Shown: one piece after another, positions 1,603 to 59,559 of the stretch
How the letters are laid out: every line of letters begins with the position of its first letter
Numbering within the stretch: the stretch's first letter is position 1
Origin: Escherichia phage AidaStucki_Bas93
Length of the DNA stretch: 64,000 nt
Strand: one strand, 5' to 3'
Sequence record: PQ850593.1
Position numbers and translations under genes: made by a program
Notes under the pieces: model-generated
What the model was told of the DNA's origin: nothing
What the model saw: the letters and a program-made list of their open reading frames with translations, nothing else
The model's database searches: none

Positions 1603-3846
1603 ATGGCTAAGCAAAAATATAGTGAAGAGGTGTTGGACGAGTTACGTGTTGACCTTCAACGTCGTTTTAATTACGCTCAAGGTTACGTTGACATGGCTGT
1701 TAAGGGCTATGCTCGTGAAGCTTGGGAATATTTCTATGGTAACTTACCTGCACCAGTAACTGCTGGCAGCTCTAGTTGGGTAGATCGTACTGTTTGGGAG
1801 TCTGTTAACGGTACGCTGCAAGATATTATTAACGTATTCTGTTCTGGTGATGAAGCAGTTATTTTCGTAGCTGATAACCAACAGGATTCTGATGCTGCTG
1901 ACGTAGCAACTAAATTAGTTAATCAAATTCTTCTGCGTGATAATCCGGGATACAACATTATCTCTTCTGCTGCACAAGAATGTCTGGTTACTCGTAACTC
2001 TTTTATCAAATATTATTGGGATGAGCACACTTCTACCCAAACCGAAGAAGCTGAAGGTGTACCACCGGAGGCATTGGCTGCATATGTTCAGGGATTAGAA
2101 GCTGGTGGACTCAAGAATCTGGAAATCTTCACTGAAGAAAACGAAGATGGTACAGTAGATGTTAAAGTTACTTATGAACAAACTGTTAAACGTGTGAAAG
2201 TTGAATATGTTCCTTCAGAGCAAATCTTTGTTGACGAACATGCTACCTCTTTTGCAGATGCACAATATTTCTGTCATCGTGTACGTCGTTCTAAAGAAGA
2301 TCTGGTTGCTATGGGCTTCCCTAAAGACGAGATTGAAGCATTCAACGACTGGACAGATACGATGGATACCACTCAATCTACAGTTGCTTGGTCTCGTACT
2401 GACTGGCGTCAGGACATTGATGCTGACATTGGTACAGATACCGAAGATATCGCTTCTATGGTTTGGGTTTATGAGCACTACATCCGTACTGGTGTTCTAG
2501 ATAAGAATAAAGAGTCTAAACTCTATCAGGTTATTCAAGCTGGTGAGCATATCCTTCACACTGAAGAAGTAACTCATATTCCGTTTGTAACCTTCTGCCC
2601 ATATCCGATTCCGGGTTCCTTCTATGGTCAGTCAGTCTATGACATTACGAAAGATATTCAGGATTTACGTACCGCGTTAGTTCGTGGTTATATTGATAAC
2701 GTCAACAATGCTAACTATGGTCGATACAAAGCACTCGTTGGTGCATACGATCGTCGCTCTCTGCTTGATAATCGTCCCGGTGGAGTGGTTGAAATGGAAC
2801 GTCAGGACGCTATTGACCTGTTCCCATACCATAACCTACCTCAAGGTATTGACGGCCTATTAGGTATGTCTGAGGAGCTTAAAGAGACACGTACTGGTGT
2901 AACTAAACTTGGCATGGGTATCAACCCTGACGTGTTTAAGAATGATAACGCTTATGCAACTGTAGGCTTGATGATGAATGCTGCACAGAACCGTCTCCGT
3001 ATGGTATGTCGTAATATTGCTCACAACGGCATGGTTGAATTGATGCGTGGTATTTACAACCTTGTCAGAGAAAACGGTGAAGTTCCTATTGAGGTACAAA
3101 CCCCTCGTGGTATGGTTCAGGTAAATCCGAAACAATTACCAGCTCGTCACAATCTTCAAGTTGTGGTAGCTATTTCTCCTAATGAGAAAGCAGAACGTGC
3201 ACAGAAATTAATTAGCTTGAAACAGCTGATTGCAGCAGATGCACAGTTAGCACCTCTCTTTGGTTTGGAGCAAGACCGTTACATGACTGCACAGATCTTT
3301 GAGTTGATGGGTATTAAGGACACTCATAAGTACTTACTGCCTCTGGAACAGTATCAGCCTCCTGAGCCGTCTCCGATGGAAATCCTCCAGCTCGAGATGA
3401 CTAAAGCACAGGTTGAGAACGTACAGGCTTCCTCTCAGAAAATGATTGCTGATGCATTCGACCAACGTGAACGTACTACATTCGAACAGCAGAAAGCTGC
3501 GGATGAGTTAAGTCTGCGTCAGGAAGAGTTGCAGTTCAAGCAAGAAAATGCAGCAGATGCTATGACTCTGGAAAACCGTAAAGAAGATAACAATGCAACT
3601 CTGGAACAAGCAAAGCACAAGTTAGCTCTTATGCAACAGCAGGTCCGTCAGTATGAGTCTGTACTGAAAGAATTGCAGATGGTTATGGAGCATCAGGTAG
3701 ACCAAGAGAAGATTGTTCAGCAATTTCGTGTTCAGGATAAAACTTTGGAACTCCAAAAGAAAGAAGCTAATGTAACTAAGAAAGAGCAACAAGCCTCTCT
3801 CAAAGATTCACGGATTCCAGGCAAACGTCTTGGAAGTAAAAAGTAA
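1603..3846 (+). CDS. portal protein
   Basis: 747 aa. Lies immediately after terL, has portal-typical size, and ends in a long Q/E/K-rich helical tail. SD gagggagag lies upstream. Confidence 0.85.
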   Translation: MAKQKYSEEVLDELRVDLQRRFNYAQGYVDMAVKGYAREAWEYFYGNLPAPVTAGSSSWVDRTVWESVNGTLQDIINVFCSGDEAVIFVADNQQDSDAADVATKLVNQILLRDNPGYNIISSAAQECLVTRNSFIKYYWDEHTSTQTEEAEGVPPEALAAYVQGLEAGGLKNLEIFTEENEDGTVDVKVTYEQTVKRVKVEYVPSEQIFVDEHATSFADAQYFCHRVRRSKEDLVAMGFPKDEIEAFNDWTDTMDTTQSTVAWSRTDWRQDIDADIGTDTEDIASMVWVYEHYIRTGVLDKNKESKLYQVIQAGEHILHTEEVTHIPFVTFCPYPIPGSFYGQSVYDITKDIQDLRTALVRGYIDNVNNANYGRYKALVGAYDRRSLLDNRPGGVVEMERQDAIDLFPYHNLPQGIDGLLGMSEELKETRTGVTKLGMGINPDVFKNDNAYATVGLMMNAAQNRLRMVCRNIAHNGMVELMRGIYNLVRENGEVPIEVQTPRGMVQVNPKQLPARHNLQVVVAISPNEKAERAQKLISLKQLIAADAQLAPLFGLEQDRYMTAQIFELMGIKDTHKYLLPLEQYQPPEPSPMEILQLEMTKAQVENVQASSQKMIADAFDQRERTTFEQQKAADELSLRQEELQFKQENAADAMTLENRKEDNNATLEQAKHKLALMQQQVRQYESVLKELQMVMEHQVDQEKIVQQFRVQDKTLELQKKEANVTKKEQQASLKDSRIPGKRLGSKK

Positions 3847-3855
3847 GGACGTCGA

Positions 3856-4092
3856 ATGAACATTAGGCATCAATTCAATAAAGAGCACGCCGCCGCTTTG
3901 GCGGCTCTCAACCTTAACGGCAGTCTTGACGCAGCATTAGAGGCATTGAAAGAGAGACTCATGACAGAAATAGTTCAAACTGAACCTCATGAGAATAAGA
4001 AACGCGAAGATTGTTATCAAAAGTATAAAATGGTGGGTAGCTTAAAAGAGGTCATAAAAGCTGCTATCAATAGTGCAGGAGATGTTTCATAA
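3856..4092 (+). CDS. hypothetical head-module protein
   Basis: 78 aa. Lies between portal and scaffold; its stop overlaps the next start (ATAATG). Confidence 0.5.
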   Translation: MNIRHQFNKEHAAALAALNLNGSLDAALEALKERLMTEIVQTEPHENKKREDCYQKYKMVGSLKEVIKAAINSAGDVS

Positions 4093-5177
4093 TGCCACAA
4101 GATAATTATATTGACCCGAACGATTTTAAATCTTTCCTCCAACTGGATGACCTGAAGGGTTCTTTCAAAGAAGAACTTGGTCGATTAGAATCTGAACAAG
4201 AACCAGAAGTGGACATTGACGATGAGTTCCCGGAAAAAGATGGTGACGATTTCGACTTTGATACCGACCTTCTCGGTGAAAGCGATGAGCTTAAGTTCGA
4301 AGATGAAGATGGTTGGGAAGATCGTGATGAGGAAGGCGAAGTCGAAGAAGATGGGGACAACTCTGACGAAGGTGATGAAAACGCTGAAGTAGAAGAGGAA
4401 GACTCAAGCGATGCAGGATATGGAGATGATTCTGCTGACGGTGAAGGTGAAGTCTTTGATGTAGACTATGAAACCGTTATCACCCTTCCTGATGGACGTG
4501 AGATGACTATTGAAGAACTCTCCAATGGCTATCTTACTGGTGCTGATATGGCTGAACGTGAGACTACTCTTCAGCGTCACATGGAAGCATTTGAGGAACG
4601 TGTAGTAGGTTTGAAGGATGTATTAGAATTAGCGTCTTTAGAAGCAGACCGAGTAATTGAGGATTACAACGGTTTTGATTGGGACAAGCTTGCAGTAGAA
4701 GATCCTCAAGCATATGTTGAAAACAAACGTTTCCTAGAGAAGTATACAGCTCGTCGTAACCAGCTTGAACAGGCTCAGATCCGTATTAAGCAGGAAGCAG
4801 CAGCTAAAGAGCAGGAAGCTTTCCAAGCCAAGAGCATTGAATGTGTTAATATTCTGAAACGTGAGATTCCAAATTGGGATGAAAACTTATATCAAAACTT
4901 AATGCAATACGCAATTGACTTAGGTGCTACTGAAGAAGAAGTATTGAAGGAAAACCGTCCGTCTATTTTCCTAGCCCTTCACAAAGCATACCAATTTGAT
5001 AAAGGTAAGCAGCAGGTGATGGCTAAGATTAAACGTCCCGGTGCTCCACGCAAGGTTGTGAAGTCTGATGCTGCAAAGTCTCGCACTTCCAATAAGCCAG
5101 ACAACGCTAAGGTTGCCAAGGCATTCGCAGAGGGTCGCGTTAGTCACGAAGACGCATTCAAATTCCTCGTAGATTAA
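4092..5177 (+). CDS. scaffolding protein (putative)
   Basis: 361 aa. Very acidic D/E-rich N-terminal third followed by a helical, coiled-coil-like region. Lies directly upstream of the major capsid gene. Confidence 0.6.
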   Translation: MPQDNYIDPNDFKSFLQLDDLKGSFKEELGRLESEQEPEVDIDDEFPEKDGDDFDFDTDLLGESDELKFEDEDGWEDRDEEGEVEEDGDNSDEGDENAEVEEEDSSDAGYGDDSADGEGEVFDVDYETVITLPDGREMTIEELSNGYLTGADMAERETTLQRHMEAFEERVVGLKDVLELASLEADRVIEDYNGFDWDKLAVEDPQAYVENKRFLEKYTARRNQLEQAQIRIKQEAAAKEQEAFQAKSIECVNILKREIPNWDENLYQNLMQYAIDLGATEEEVLKENRPSIFLALHKAYQFDKGKQQVMAKIKRPGAPRKVVKSDAAKSRTSNKPDNAKVAKAFAEGRVSHEDAFKFLVD

Positions 5178-18388: not shown

Positions 18389-19408
18389 ATGGCATATGGA
18401 ATATGGTGTCAACCGGTAGGTCCGGGGCCAGCCGCCCCTGCCTCTCTTTTTATAGATAGTAATTTAACATTTCCACAATATCTAGGAGCATACAATATAT
18501 CTCCTTCGTGGAGTGCTAGAAATGCTTCTTTTAACGTAGGCTCTTTTGATGGTCAAGGTGAGTTATTAATTGTCCCGACTAGTAGACTTATTCAAGATTA
18601 TTATGTAGGGACAGATTTAATGCCCAGTTTTAGTTATGTAACAGGTATAGGGACTTCTGGACAAACAGTAAATATTAACATAGAGCCTGCTGGAGCTAGT
18701 GGTAACAATAACAGAAACTTCCCAATGTCTTTCCAAGCATATAAACTCTGGCCTAGAGGTAATAGAAGCTACGGAATAACTTTCTCAAACTCAGCAGATT
18801 TCTTTTCTATCTCTGATAGTGGGGTTGTTGGTCAGTGTGTTTGGGCGTACAGAGGGGCTGTAGGAGACGGTTTTACTGTCCCTAATGCTGGCCCCAACGC
18901 TCTAGTATTTGCCAACTGGAATCAGGGTGGGGTGTGTGCTTCTTACAACGCAAGCAACGGTCAAATGATCATAACCCACGATAGATCAAACCAGTCTGGC
19001 AGTAACAGAGGTGCAGTAATATATGATATGAGAATTGCTGTTTTTGCTAGTGGTGTGGGTGTACCAGAACATAATGGAGGTCTGAATATATACTCTCCCG
19101 GAACTACAACTTGTGTATTCTCTACTTACAGGACTCCGTTTGCTATCAGCAGGTTCTTCCCATCTAGTGGGGGTTATACAGGTCTAGGCATTCCTATGAT
19201 GTGTATGAATGTCACTAATGGAGCCATAACAGCGCAAGGTGGTGGATGGATGTGGGTTCATGAAAGATCTCATACAATGAGTGGTACGTCAGTAGGAACA
19301 GGCTTTGGCCCACTCGTGGCTAACTGGACTGACCGATACCCAATCAACGTTAACATAAACCTAGGATTCAATTACCCAATGTTGGAAGGTTCTTTAATTT
19401 ATGCATAA
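18389..19408 (+). CDS. hypothetical virion protein
   Basis: 339 aa. Translationally coupled to the neighbouring tail genes. No motif recognised. Confidence 0.4.
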   Translation: MAYGIWCQPVGPGPAAPASLFIDSNLTFPQYLGAYNISPSWSARNASFNVGSFDGQGELLIVPTSRLIQDYYVGTDLMPSFSYVTGIGTSGQTVNINIEPAGASGNNNRNFPMSFQAYKLWPRGNRSYGITFSNSADFFSISDSGVVGQCVWAYRGAVGDGFTVPNAGPNALVFANWNQGGVCASYNASNGQMIITHDRSNQSGSNRGAVIYDMRIAVFASGVGVPEHNGGLNIYSPGTTTCVFSTYRTPFAISRFFPSSGGYTGLGIPMMCMNVTNGAITAQGGGWMWVHERSHTMSGTSVGTGFGPLVANWTDRYPINVNINLGFNYPMLEGSLIYA

Positions 19409-19417
19409 GGAGATATT

Positions 19418-20200
19418 ATGGCAATTAGAATGGGTATCGAAGAACTAGACCCAATGGTGCAACAGGCTTCAAAGAAGTATGGAATACCAGCTGCTTTGAT
19501 TCATGCTGTAATCCAAAGGGAGTCTAGTGGTCGTCCTACGGTGGCCTCTGGAACTGGTCCTGTAGGTTTAATGCAGATCAGTAAAGGAGTAGCCAAAGAT
19601 TATGGTTACAAACTAGAAGATAGACTTGACCCGGCAAAGAACATTGATATGGGTGCTCGTTACATCAGAGACAATCTGAAAGCTTTTAATGGTGATGTTA
19701 AGAAAGCGATGGTTGGTTATTCAGAAGGTATTAGTGGTGCTAAGCAGATGTTCGCTGGTAAAAGAGGTTTTACTTCTCAGGCTCTTGACTCAATGAATAA
19801 CAAACACTTTCTCCCTTTCTATGGTGACGCATCTTCTCAGATTGCTAACCCTATTGGAGCTTTACAAGCTGTTCAGCCCGTCAACCAGTTCAGTTCGGGC
19901 TATTTAGATAGAGAGAAGGCTGCACAAGCTCCAACCCAGGCAGAGATTGCTGCTTCTAAGACAGGTGCTTTAGGCGGTAATCCTGTAGGGTTTTACTCTG
20001 ATGAAGTGCAGGAAGGTGAAGACCAGAAGCCCCAACAGAACTTTGGTAATGCAGTATTAGGGTTGGCTGCTATGCTTGCTGGTAAACCTCCTACCTCTCA
20101 AACAGTTCAGAGGGCAAGTGCACCTCATGCAGCAGGTTCTCAGTACAGCCCACAAACACAAGCAGTGCTTAGACGTCTGGCTAGCATTGGTGTTAAGTAA
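19418..20200 (+). CDS. internal virion protein with lytic transglycosylase (SLT) domain
   Basis: 260 aa. Carries VIQRESSGRP...GLMQIS, the SLT catalytic Glu-Ser motif and GLMQ box. Confidence 0.8.
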   Translation: MAIRMGIEELDPMVQQASKKYGIPAALIHAVIQRESSGRPTVASGTGPVGLMQISKGVAKDYGYKLEDRLDPAKNIDMGARYIRDNLKAFNGDVKKAMVGYSEGISGAKQMFAGKRGFTSQALDSMNNKHFLPFYGDASSQIANPIGALQAVQPVNQFSSGYLDREKAAQAPTQAEIAASKTGALGGNPVGFYSDEVQEGEDQKPQQNFGNAVLGLAAMLAGKPPTSQTVQRASAPHAAGSQYSPQTQAVLRRLASIGVK

Positions 20201-35160: not shown

Positions 35161-35654
35161 TTAGTGTGTATGCATCCAATTTAACCCAATCTGACAATCA
35201 GAAGCCAGAGGACATTCCATGTTCAAGTACTCACCAGCCTTCTTAACACAAAGCTCGGTGTACTCTTTGAGTTTCTGTACATCATTACGGTTCACTGAGA
35301 ACTGGCCCTCATCGTGCATATCAATTACCTTAGCACAACGAACTCCATCTTTCTCAATCCACTTGTTAAGGAACATCATAGCATATTTCATAACAACAGC
35401 ACCAGCACATTGCAGGAGTGTGTTAAGGGCTTTATGAACCATAACCTTACCAGTGGCATCCCGTCTCATTGTAATCTTACGACCATCAACGCCAATCAAA
35501 TACCCTTGAGCAGCTTTCTCTGTCATACGATCAATGAGGATTGCAATACATGGGTTCTCTGCCAAGAAGCGTGCTCGCATCACTGAACCTTCGTCAGCTC
35601 CACCACCTACGATTGAACCAAGTTTAGCATCACCAGCACCATAGTTAAACGCAT
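35161..35654 (-). CDS. DNA polymerase (family A, T7 gp5-like), exon 2
   Basis: Encodes (Y)AFNYGAGDAKLG (second half of motif B) and VIDMHDEGQF (motif C). There is no in-frame ATG before the motif, and an in-frame TGA lies 3 codons upstream of FNYGAG. Confidence 0.8.
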
Positions 35655-36360
35655 CTCATATATTCGACAAGAGCCGCAACACTCTCGCCCGTTCTCTTAT
35701 GAACTGCTACATGTCGCCATGTAGGATAGACTATATCATCACCCTCTATCGAGGGGTTGGGCGCTTCCACCGGCATTAGCTTCCGGCGTACTCCTTTCGG
35801 ATAGTCGTTGCACCTTCAAGTATTCTATAGCTGTTTCTAATCGGCTAACATCATCTTTCAATAGCCCTAAAGCTCTGTTGCAGTTGTGACACAACAGACC
35901 GCGTATTACTCCGGATTCATGGCAATGATCAACCACAAGTTTAATTCTGTGATGTGTTGCCATTACAAACCCTTCGCCCTTACAGATAGCACACTTCCCA
36001 TCCTGATCAGCGTACATCTTTTCGTAATCGCTGGCTGTGATTCCATAAATTCGTTTGAAGTAGGAATTTCTCCAGCCCCTATCTTTGCATTCATCAGAGC
36101 AATAATGTTCAGATGGTGCATTTGGTTGAAAATCTTTTGAGCAATTACGACAAGGTTTTGGATTGAACCGACCTTGAGGGTATTTACTTGCCTCAGCAGT
36201 CTGTTCTTCTTTAGTTTTAGTTACAGTTGTATATTCCATAAGCACCTCCATGTTGAGTTGCTATAGAATACTTGCTTGGCTCAGGATTGTCTACTAGAGA
36301 GTTTCCCTGAGTTCACCCAATTTAATCGACGAGATTACTCTCGAAGTATCCATTTACGTC
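35655..36360 (-). mobile_element. putative group I intron (706 nt) carrying an HNH homing endonuclease
   Basis: The 5' splice site follows a U and the intron ends in G. P1 can form (exon UAUCU with intron GGAUA, U-G wobble at the splice site). GNRA-capped hairpins are present (cgaga-GTAA-tctcg; ctacatg-GCGA-catgtag). Joining the exons restores TFIYAFNYGAGD. Confidence 0.7.
35739..36239 (-). CDS. HNH endonuclease (Endonuclease VII-type), intron-encoded
   Basis: 166 aa from the ATG after ggaggtg. Carries CAICKGEG...LVVDHCHESGVIRGLLCHNCNRALG. Confidence 0.8.
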   Translation of the reverse strand: MEYTTVTKTKEEQTAEASKYPQGRFNPKPCRNCSKDFQPNAPSEHYCSDECKDRGWRNSYFKRIYGITASDYEKMYADQDGKCAICKGEGFVMATHHRIKLVVDHCHESGVIRGLLCHNCNRALGLLKDDVSRLETAIEYLKVQRLSERSTPEANAGGSAQPLDRG

Positions 36361-37711
36361 AGATAAACGTTTTAGCGTTGTCACGAGTAGGAAGACCAGC
36401 AAGTTTCTGGTTGTGGGAGTGGATATCACCTTCAAGAAGGATATCACGATACATAATAGCAGAAGCTAAACCACGTTCTGCCAGAGCTTTCTTAGCTGGA
36501 TTATTCTCTTCGATTGCTTCAGCAAGCATATCCCTACACTCTTTAATGAGGTAGTGAGCGAGCATACGAAGTTCAAGTCCAGAACCATCATACCCTAAGA
36601 ATACTTCTTTACCAGCGGGTATGTAATATTTGTAAGCACCTACAGGCTTATCTTTCTTCCCCGGCTTACCTTTCTCGTAAATTACGTTAGTACCTTTTCG
36701 TATATAACAACCATCAGGAACAACGTTAGTAATAACGAAAGGACGAGAGTGATCACTGTCTGAATTATAGTCAGACTCAAACAAACTGCGACACTCATGA
36801 CCAAACAAACCACGAGAGGGAATATTAACCACGATACGATGTTTGAATCGAAAAGTTGGCGTAGCGCAGCTGTTAGCTTCTGCCGAAAGTTTACCATCTT
36901 CGCGTTCCTTTGCTATGAGTCCACTGATAAGACCTAGCCTGTGAGCCGCTACAACGCGCCTCTTAAGCAAACTTCCAACACTCCCTAGCTCGCCCCCTAA
37001 CCCTTCTTCAAGAGTCTCCTCGAGGTTTGTAGGAGCTGTAGGCCACTTGTTTGAGGTAGCTAGTGCTATCTTAATCTCATCAAACGTGATAGGTCTACGT
37101 CGGTTAGGGTTTAAACCTAAACCAAACACATAAGCCTTCATATAGTTCTTAGTCTTAAACCTAAAATGCTTCTCTAAGAACCTCCTAATATCTGCGTCAA
37201 CCATCTCGGCTGTCTGCTTCTGTTTAGCATTACCTCGCATCCAAGCTGAATACCACGCTTGGTATGTTCCATACTTTCGTATATCTTTCTTGATTTCAAA
37301 AGTATTCCAAGGTTTCTTTGATACGTTAAACTCTGGAGGAAGAAAACCCTCATCCATAAGGGCTTCTTTAACTCGTGCATCTTTCGATGGGTCAAAGTCC
37401 ACGTATTCAACACAGGTGAATGCTCCACCAATGTCTTCTCTCTTAAGGCCAACTCTATCACAATAGGCTTGAGGCCACTTCTGTAAAGCTCCAGACTTCT
37501 TAAATGGCTTCATATAAGTAGAGCCATCTAATCTCATCTTAGGTAAGAGAGGGATCAGTTCTTTGTCGATATTAACAATAATCTCTTTAAGGAGGTGAAC
37601 ATACCACCGAGCATTTCTTCGGTTGAAACTCACTCCGTGCTTCGCTTGCTTAGAGATTATATCAGCGACAGTCATCTCTGTCAAAAATGGGAGAGCGTCC
37701 GGGTTGCTCAC
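36361..37711 (-). CDS. DNA polymerase (family A, T7 gp5-like), exon 1
   Basis: GTG start after aaggag. Ends ...LAGLPTRDNAKTFI, the first half of the O-helix/motif B, followed immediately by TGA. Confidence 0.85.
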
Positions 37712-37727
37712 TTTATACTCCTTTAAA

Positions 37728-59455: not shown

Positions 59456-59559
59456 AAGAGCTTCTAGCGAGGATGACAGGGTTCGAACCTGCATACTCCA
59501 ATTACTTCTTTAACGACCGCTTAGAAGGCGGGGAAGATACATCCTCGCTAGAAGCTCTT
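59456..59559. repeat. 20-bp perfect inverted repeat flanking the tRNA-like element
   Basis: aagagcttctagcgaggatg (59456-59475) is the exact reverse complement of 59540-59559. Confidence 0.95.
59468..59546 (-). tRNA. tRNA-like element, possibly a non-canonical tRNA-Arg(UCU)
   Basis: 7-bp acceptor stem (GAGGATG/CATCCTC). Canonical T arm (GCAGG-TTCGAAC-CCTGT). A hairpin CCGC-CUUCUAA-GCGG with U33 and anticodon UCU. I could not draw a D arm, 23 nt lie between the anticodon arm and the T arm, and no CCA is encoded. Confidence 0.45.

Follow-up and report, generated by a model that had tools for sequence, protein, structure and literature searches.

A group I intron of subgroup IA2 with an endonuclease VII-type gene in the motif-B tyrosine codon of a Kuravirus DNA polymerase gene

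Introduction

The intron of Pseudomonas phage LUZ24, whose boundaries were mapped by cDNA to 19143-19811 and whose splicing was demonstrated in vivo (Ceyssens et al. 2008, Virology 377:233; Putzeys et al. 2024, PMC10914365), is the closest characterised relative of the element described here, a 706-nt group I intron that interrupts the DNA polymerase gene of Escherichia phage AidaStucki_Bas93 (sequence record PQ850593.1). The whole stretch of 64,000 nucleotides that was analysed is referred to as the window.

In the T7-like podophages PhiI and W31, the family A polymerase gene contains a self-splicing intron of subgroup IA2 with an endonuclease open reading frame (ORF) in P6a (PMC3428280). These introns were placed at "site 881" (motif C) by Kong et al. 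2012 (PMC3428280), where a P7.1 and a P7.2 linked by G-U-A are given as the hallmark of subgroup IA2. Homing endonucleases with an Endo VII motif were grouped as the DHHRN family, defined by D, H, H, R and N residues (Fang et al. 2018, PMC6083498); among its members are the enzymes encoded by introns of LUZ24 and of the Yersinia phages Berlin and YpP-G (PMC6083498). For phage PhiPA3, gp210 was shown to act in competition, so that the intron gives an advantage to the phage carrying it (PMC11620839).

A preliminary description of the window, made from the sequence, had proposed a homing group I intron at the catalytic tyrosine of the polymerase. The locus was compared with related phages, and the element is most probably (about 0.93) a mobile IA2 group I intron in the motif-B tyrosine codon of the polymerase gene of a Kuravirus closely related to Escherichia phage ManiMatter_Bas94.

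Results

Over the locus, the window is ~99.6% identical to ManiMatter_Bas94 (PQ850617.1), a podophage in the BASEL collection that belongs to the Kuravirus group. Exon 1 of the polymerase gene reads ...PTRDNAKTFI and is followed by a UGA (36361..36359) that spans the 5' splice site (U|GA). Exon 2 opens at A35654 with (T)AT GCG TTT AAC TAT GGT (YAFNYGAG), its leading AU completing the Tyr codon; an in-frame TGA sits three codons 5' of the exon-2 Phe codon, and motif C (IDMHDEG) is encoded within the exon. When T36361 is joined to A35654, the exons add up to 1351 + 494 = 1845 nt, which is divisible by three, and encode a family A polymerase of 614 codons with the motif RDNAKTFIYAFNYGAGD. The ligated junction expected from the sequence would be ...ACGTTTATCT|ATGCGTTTAAC... 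The insertion point falls between bases 1 and 2 of the first motif-B Tyr codon (KTFI-Y), in the O-helix at the equivalent of T7 gp5 Y526. Three different reading frames are occupied by exon 1, the ORF of 166 aa and exon 2. The exon-1 end with its TGA, the 706-nt gap, the (T)AT start of exon 2 and the in-frame TGA upstream of it had all been read correctly in the preliminary description, and the 1845 nt of the join proposed there (36361 to 35654) equal the length of the uninterrupted gene of Escherichia phage Bas92.

Comparison with intron-less Bas92 (PQ850610.1) fixed the insertion site to the base; the preliminary description had named a comparison with such relatives as a check. The spliced window gene differs from the Bas92 gene by 12 nt and 1 aa over 1845 nt, and the intron appears as an exact gap of 706 nt, with neither terminal repeats nor a target duplication. 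Differences in the flanking bases preclude a shift of the junction by even one base in either direction, and the insertion is thus defined to the nucleotide by comparative data alone. Nearly all other related records align in two pieces that span exactly 1845 nt; in about 100 Kuraviruses besides Bas92 the gene is uninterrupted at this length. The element of Bas94 is essentially identical. In its GenBank record the polymerase coding sequence is already joined from two pieces, an "endonuclease VII" coding sequence is annotated between them, and a group I intron label is absent; the accompanying paper makes no mention of an intron (PMC11990801), and nothing on Kuravirus introns was found in the literature searched. 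The introns of the window and Bas94 differ at 3 positions, two of them structure-preserving (in P7.2, G.U to A-U; in the P8 loop, GAUA to GACA).

No second polymerase gene was found in the 64-kb window, which makes it a sound inference, already drawn in the preliminary description, that the polymerase is made only after splicing. Since near-identical Bas94 is moreover a plaque-forming isolate (PMC11990801), splicing must suffice to supply the replicase.

In a permissive Rfam scan of 35600-36420, the group I model RF00028 was matched over model positions 1-253 with 35.8 bits (E=2.3e-7) and a 434-nt insertion in the P6 loop. At the intron's 5' end, the pairing of exon UAUCU with intron GGAUA that had been suggested as P1 was confirmed, with U36361 before the 5' splice site and a U36361.G36351 wobble at the junction; the wobble is retained in 9/12 aligned relatives. 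The last intron base is G35655 (omega G), and it is G in all homologues. The GNRA-capped hairpins of the preliminary description were identified as P2 (GUAA), P7.1 (GAAA), P8 (GAUA) and P9 (GCGA).

For covariation, a structure of 81 pairs was evaluated on an alignment of 12 homologous introns. Standard pairs occupied 93.4% of the pair cells, compared with 35-42% when the 3' partners were slid by 1-3 columns, and changes on both sides were seen in 54/81 pairs (14-17 after sliding). The observed covariation values were not attained in any of 500 column shuffles. Compensatory changes were abundant in P2, P3, P7.1, P7.2, P8, P9 and P9.2, and all nine pairs of P7.1 and P7.2 covaried. The conserved core is thus present and backed by covariation: P3 to P8 with the P/Q/R/S elements and the P3/P7 pseudoknot. 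Assignment to IA2 follows from P7.1/P7.2 between P7 and the P3 3' strand with a G-U-A joint, and the P9.1/P9.2 extensions are present. An unconstrained minimum free energy fold of the ORF-deleted mini-intron (306 nt) recovered 11/14 helices, the exceptions being P1, the 3-bp P6 and the P7 pseudoknot; its energy lay 5.6 sd below that of dinucleotide shuffles (z = -5.6), which makes it the more stable fold.

Among the matches listed, more than 120 viral contigs of IMG/VR contain exact copies of the P9.1 element CAGUUCAUAAGAGAACGG (18 nt, window 35691-35707), so that this lineage of IA2 introns is very widely distributed across phage metagenomes. The P9.2 loop UGUUGCGG (35674-35681; GUUGC) is complementary over 5 nt to J6/7 GCAAC (35811-35807). 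A tertiary pairing between the two was considered and dropped: in relatives the loop is altered (AGUAACGA, CUAGCGAG and others) but J6/7 is not, and complementarity is not kept. A U-W-R-C-G core is shared by the P9.2 loops of all relatives.

The 166-aa ORF, noted before as lying in a frame of its own behind a GGAGGTG Shine-Dalgarno (SD) sequence, was confirmed in both respects, and its Endo VII type was established with PF02945 (Endonuclease_7; 83 bits, E=1.4e-23, cut-off 23.6). The best PDB matches of the protein were Hpy99I and T4 Endo VII. In the alignment to Hpy99I, the CX2C/DHxH/R/CX2C-N pattern is kept throughout (C83, C86, D104, H105, H107, R113, C117, C120, N121); with the D/H/H/R/N residues, two CX2C zinc ligand pairs and a Pfam score above the cut-off, the protein belongs to the DHHRN type. 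It is 60% identical to the Berlin enzyme and 56% identical to LUZ24 gp35 (E=6e-51). Database homologues numbered 831, many of them within related introns at the T|AT site in diverse polymerases.

The P6a loop contains the start of the ORF, whose final 93 nt also form P6a', P6', J6/7, P7, P7.1, P7.2, P3' and P8. Whereas the ORFs of Berlin and Klebsiella phage RCIP0053 end at a UAA in J6/7 (GUGUAAC), the window has GUGCAAC there, so that 23 more codons are translated, to a UGA just past P8. Judged from this arrangement, the 23-aa C-terminal tail would most simply be read-through of the ribozyme core.

Related introns at the same site were recovered by a scan with the P9.1 element and by protein search; a scan of viral contigs with the pattern TTTATCT-N(5-11)-GGATACTT returned chance matches alone. 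Among the loci compared, nine distinct introns lie at the T|AT site (...UUYAUHU | ... G | AUGSN...), and LUZ24 shares the junction, which is identical in the window, LUZ24, Aeromonas phage MQM1 and the loci L012, L076, L090, L108, L131, L132 and L137. In these polymerases motif B reads TRDNAKTFIY|AFNYGAG, TRKSAKTFIY|AFLYGAG, TRDQAKTFIY|ATMYGGG and others. The LUZ24 junction is ...AAGACCTTCATCT | intron | ATGCGTTC..., encoding KTFI-Y-AFIYGAG. The group I assignment of the preliminary description accordingly holds on several grounds: exact absence of the element from intron-less sisters, the RF00028 match, IA2 covariation, homologues at the same site including spliced LUZ24, and an endonuclease with an intact catalytic motif.

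Within Kuravirus, three intron sites are occupied in different isolates. Next to the Y526-equivalent site with its Endo VII-type enzyme (window and Bas94), Escherichia phage LAMP (MG673519.1) has an ORF-less intron of 304 nt (1864-2167) in the second motif-B Tyr codon, the Y530 equivalent, 12 nt downstream of the window site; its polymerase is likewise annotated as a join around this intron. LAMP differs from the spliced window gene at 15 positions, 8 of which cluster within ~20 nt either side of the window junction, 12 nt from the LAMP intron. By its position, this cluster looks like a typical co-conversion (homing) tract.

A third intron is found in motif C of PE006 (PQ812250.1, ~2193-2799), exactly at the boundary of the His and Asp codons. 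It is 607 nt long, matches RF00028 with 28.7 bits, and encodes an HNH_3 endonuclease of 131 aa; it is also present in pEC-N1203-2Af.1 and, judged by span length, in phages 1-6af, 1-6bf and FH3. In PE006 and pEC-N1203-2Af.1 the exons are annotated as separate "DNA polymerase" and "DNA polymerase-like protein" genes. The position of this intron is that of "site 881" (PMC3428280), and it is probably of the PhiI/W31 I-TslI type.

Table 1. Coordinates of the polymerase exons, the intron with its helices and the endonuclease gene in the window.
Feature	Position	Strand	Remarks
DNA polymerase exon 1	36361..37711	minus	1351 nt = 450 codons + first base of Tyr codon
Exon 1 start GTG	37711		SD AAGGAG 37723..37718, six bases upstream; start as in Bas92/Bas94 GenBank coding sequence
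Group I intron (subgroup IA2)	35655..36360	minus	706 nt; first base G36360, last G35655 (omega G)
DNA polymerase exon 2	35161..35654	minus	494 nt incl. stop; PF00476 (DNA_pol_A) E=1.6e-16
P1	36347..36365	minus	exon UAUCU (36365..36361) + internal guide GGAUA (36351..36347); U36361.G36351 wobble at 5' splice site
P2 hairpin CGAGA-GUAA-UCUCG	36330..36343	minus	compensatory changes at 5/5 pairs among relatives
5' core half	36260..36320	minus	P3 5' strand through P6a 5' strand
P3 5' strand	36320..36314	minus	
P4	36310..36305 with 36286..36281	minus	
P5	36300..36298 with 36292..36290	minus	
P6	5' strand 36280..36278, 3' strand 35814..35812	minus	3 bp
P6a	5' strand 36274..36260, 3' strand 35831..35817	minus	perfect 15-bp stem looping out the ORF
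3' core half	35729..35831	minus	P6a 3' strand through J8/7 and P7 3' strand
P7	GACUA 35806..35802 / UAGUC 35733..35729 (with J8/7)	minus	guanosine site; invariant in 12/12 sequences
P7.1 UCC-GAAA-GGA	35801..35792	minus	followed by GUA linker
P7.2 CGCCGG...CCGGUG	35788..35768	minus	
P3 3' strand	35763..35757	minus	
P8	35755..35742	minus	GAUA loop; covaries
Peripheral 3' domain	35655..35724	minus	P9, P9.1, P9.2, 3' tail to omega G35655
P9	35724..35707	minus	GCGA loop
P9.1	35704..35691	minus	
P9.2	35688..35667	minus	
Homing endonuclease ORF	35739..36239 incl. stop	minus	166 aa; Endo VII / DHHRN type
ORF SD GGAGGTG	36249..36243	minus	

Elsewhere in the window, a marginal Rfam tRNA match was obtained at 59468-59546 (minus strand; 29.7 bits, gathering score 29) with a 20-nt insertion in the variable region. 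It is not supported by ARAGORN, which reported no tRNA anywhere in the window.

Discussion

Group I splicing and endonuclease-driven homing are textbook mechanisms. Applied to this locus, the pre-mRNA would fold into the P1-P9.2 ribozyme. Exogenous guanosine bound in P7 would attack the phosphodiester 3' of U36361, positioned by the U.G pair of P1; terminal G35655 would next fill the G site, and the free 3'-OH of exon 1 would attack after G35655. Ligation of the exons would restore ...KTFI-Y-AFNYGAG... and the 614-codon polymerase. Unspliced RNA would stop at the junction UGA and yield a fragment of 450 aa without the second half of motif B and without motif C. The 166-aa Endo VII-motif (DHHRN) enzyme would be translated from an SD of its own, within the P6a loop. 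In co-infection it may introduce nicks or cuts into polymerase alleles that lack the intron, close to the site of insertion, after which recombinational repair could copy the intron in. Splicing in this phage, and the endonuclease activity with homing, are what we infer from sequence and homology.

Several observations weigh against this interpretation. P1 has just 5 bp and is accompanied by a weak P10. At the gathering threshold, Rfam reported no group I match in a scan of the whole window, and the local score of 35.8 bits lies below the curated gathering score of 50. A covariance-model scan had been named in the preliminary description as a check; its outcome is favourable in that RF00028 was matched over its full length in the permissive scan, and unfavourable in that the score stayed below the threshold and the whole-window scan missed the intron. 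The null was rejected as a refutation because the local scan matched and because LUZ24, which is spliced, itself scores 40.8. With 46.2 bits for the metagenomic locus L131, and 75.1 and 100.8 bits for the ORF-less introns of MQM1 (same site) and LAMP, a sub-threshold score is a property of the ORF-bearing members and hence not diagnostic. As regards mobility, the 706-nt intron was found in only 1/110 related phage records (Bas94). Around the window intron no co-conversion tract was seen in the comparison with Bas92, the nearby differences being those at +2 and +32 alone, and recent homing from a divergent donor is thus not visible. The +2 difference (T/C, TAT/TAC) is polymorphic among intron-less Kuraviruses, so it provides no usable homing footprint.

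This rarity and the missing tract would also be compatible with a splicing but immobile passenger, whose endonuclease is inactive, has drifted in specificity, or mainly damages the polymerase gene of intron-less Kuraviruses in co-infection (interference competition). The 23-aa tail, if simply ribozyme-core read-through, would fit a passenger too, and for the last variant PhiPA3 gp210 offers the precedent of an intron endonuclease used in competition (PMC11620839). On the other side, the ORF is intact with all catalytic and Zn residues conserved, and 831 homologues, many in T|AT-site introns of diverse polymerases, are distributed as active horizontal homing would lead one to expect; nor does competition rule out homing. 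We regard the passenger as unlikely. Real uncertainty is confined to the endonuclease, which may still be an active homing enzyme, a weapon in competition as described for gp210 (PMC11620839), or inert.

A non-splicing insertion, leaving either two polypeptides (450 aa and a C-terminal piece from the GTG/ATG near 35583) or a dead gene, is very improbable. An ORF of 140 aa does begin at GTG 35583, and like cases are annotated in databases as separate "DNA polymerase" coding sequences (PE006, LUZ24). But a restart at 35583 loses YAFNYGAGDAKLGSIVGGGADEGS, including both motif-B tyrosines, a complete ribozyme core kept by compensatory mutations would be left unexplained, the homologue at the same site in LUZ24 splices, and the window has no other polymerase while a near-identical phage is viable. 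An intein, a group II intron or an insertion sequence, for which nothing speaks beyond a conserved catalytic motif as insertion site, a location inteins favour too, is excluded for practical purposes: by the reading frames (exon 1 meets a UGA at the junction, and three frames are used), by domain content (no Hint, reverse transcriptase or transposase domain in the Pfam search; group I alone matched in the permissive Rfam scan) and by the exact gap relative to Bas92, hence without terminal repeats or target duplication.

With the intron read as a mobile IA2 element, a bolder picture can be drawn. The Kuravirus polymerase gene might be an arena of competing selfish elements, in which the window endonuclease serves chiefly as a weapon between phages and the LAMP intron may confer immunity; we offer this as a speculation with the odds clearly against it. 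If it were true, the endonuclease would attack co-infecting Kuraviruses without the intron, for example Bas92, by cutting their essential polymerase gene, and the carrier would gain a competitive advantage; the LAMP intron, 12 nt away, might protect by disrupting the recognition site. Bas94 and Bas92 are a convenient natural pair for measuring homing or intron-mediated phage competition, since they are nearly identical (99.4% in the polymerase gene, with and without intron), both come from the Birsig river, and both grow on E. coli K-12 expressing O16 antigen.

The practical value of these results is mostly in annotation. Such polymerases are broken up by automated gene callers (LUZ24, PE006, pEC-N1203-2Af.1, RCIP0053), with the pieces named "DNA polymerase", "endonuclease VII" or "DNA polymerase-like", and introns that bear an ORF are missed at the Rfam gathering threshold. 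To a specialist the findings will not be surprising.

Comparison with known systems

Elements of the same class are the polymerase introns of SPO1, SP82, Bastille and Pf-WMP3 (I-HmuI, I-HmuII, I-BasI, I-PfoP3I), together with the T4 introns in td, nrdB and sunY. They are likewise phage IA2 introns with P7.1/P7.2, a looped-out endonuclease ORF and a position in the catalytic site of a nucleotide-metabolism gene. They differ in their sites ("site 674/676", PMC3428280) and in their HNH or GIY-YIG enzymes, and their ORFs have no detectable sequence relationship to the window ORF. F-CphI (PMC6083498) shares the C-terminal Endo VII motif but is free-standing beside an intron, whereas the window enzyme is intron-encoded.

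Introns with HNH genes in T7-like polymerases had been cited in the preliminary description as precedents. Those of Berlin and Vi06 lie in motif B, 5 nt upstream of the window site; the PhiI/W31 intron appears to be a different element (motif C, HNH_3), and the closest characterised intron is that of LUZ24. Identity of the window intron with the PhiI/W31 I-TslI intron was rejected, as both the insertion site (motif B against motif C, the PhiI/W31 site being taken from PMC3428280 and not from the PhiI/W31 sequences) and the nuclease family differ. T3 gp5.3 is an HNH_3 protein, thus of a different Pfam family, and no similarity to the window ORF was found (E=4.1). According to Bonocora & Shub 2009, I-TslI is reportedly homologous to T3 gp5.3, a free-standing homologue.

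The motif-B introns of Berlin and YpP-G (Yersinia), Vi06 (Salmonella) and RCIP0053 (Klebsiella) share a homologous IA2 core and an Endo VII-motif enzyme with the window intron. In Berlin, Vi06 and RCIP0053 the intron lies within the Phe codon (TT|T), 5 nt upstream of the window site, uses the guide GGGCGUCU and lacks P2. A stretch of 17 nt in polymerase motif B has been struck by related introns at three separate positions.

Multiple introns were noted in some of the phages compared. RCIP0053 has three group I matches in one polymerase region (2281-2533, 2821-3495, 3850-4496), all ORFs of which are annotated as "hypothetical"; the Endo VII-type ORF of the middle intron appears broken, perhaps by a frameshift, into two overlapping ORFs (2922-3152 and 3091-3357). 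The MQM1 polymerase gene carries two introns, an ORF-less one at the T|AT site (2495-2783, 75.1 bits) and one that has an HNH_3 ORF and lies at H|D of motif C (~3112-3743, 61 bits); introns were only suspected by its authors (PMC10410586). In Pseudoalteromonas phage HP1, two unannotated group I introns were found at 2446-2716 (75.5 bits) and 3220-3501 (57.9 bits), with a 3' domain resembling the window intron family.

The element is therefore already known in kind, from the join annotations of Bas94 and LAMP and from the LUZ24 intron, experimentally established at the same nucleotide. These results add detail and not a discovery, namely the fold as IA2, the three sites at which introns occur within one genus, and the connection to LUZ24. 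A GGAU guide core and the IA2 architecture are common to the window and LUZ24 introns, whose core segments are 76-88% identical (blastn), and both have a homologous Endo VII-type enzyme (in LUZ24 gp35, "endonuclease VII") in the same P6a loop. They differ in length (706 nt in the window, 669 nt in LUZ24) and in the enzyme, which has 138 aa and ends at J6/7 in LUZ24 and runs 23 codons further in the window. LUZ24 is a Bruynoghevirus of Pseudomonas, the window phage a Kuravirus of E. coli, and with it this genus of coliphages joins the hosts of the LUZ24-type intron.

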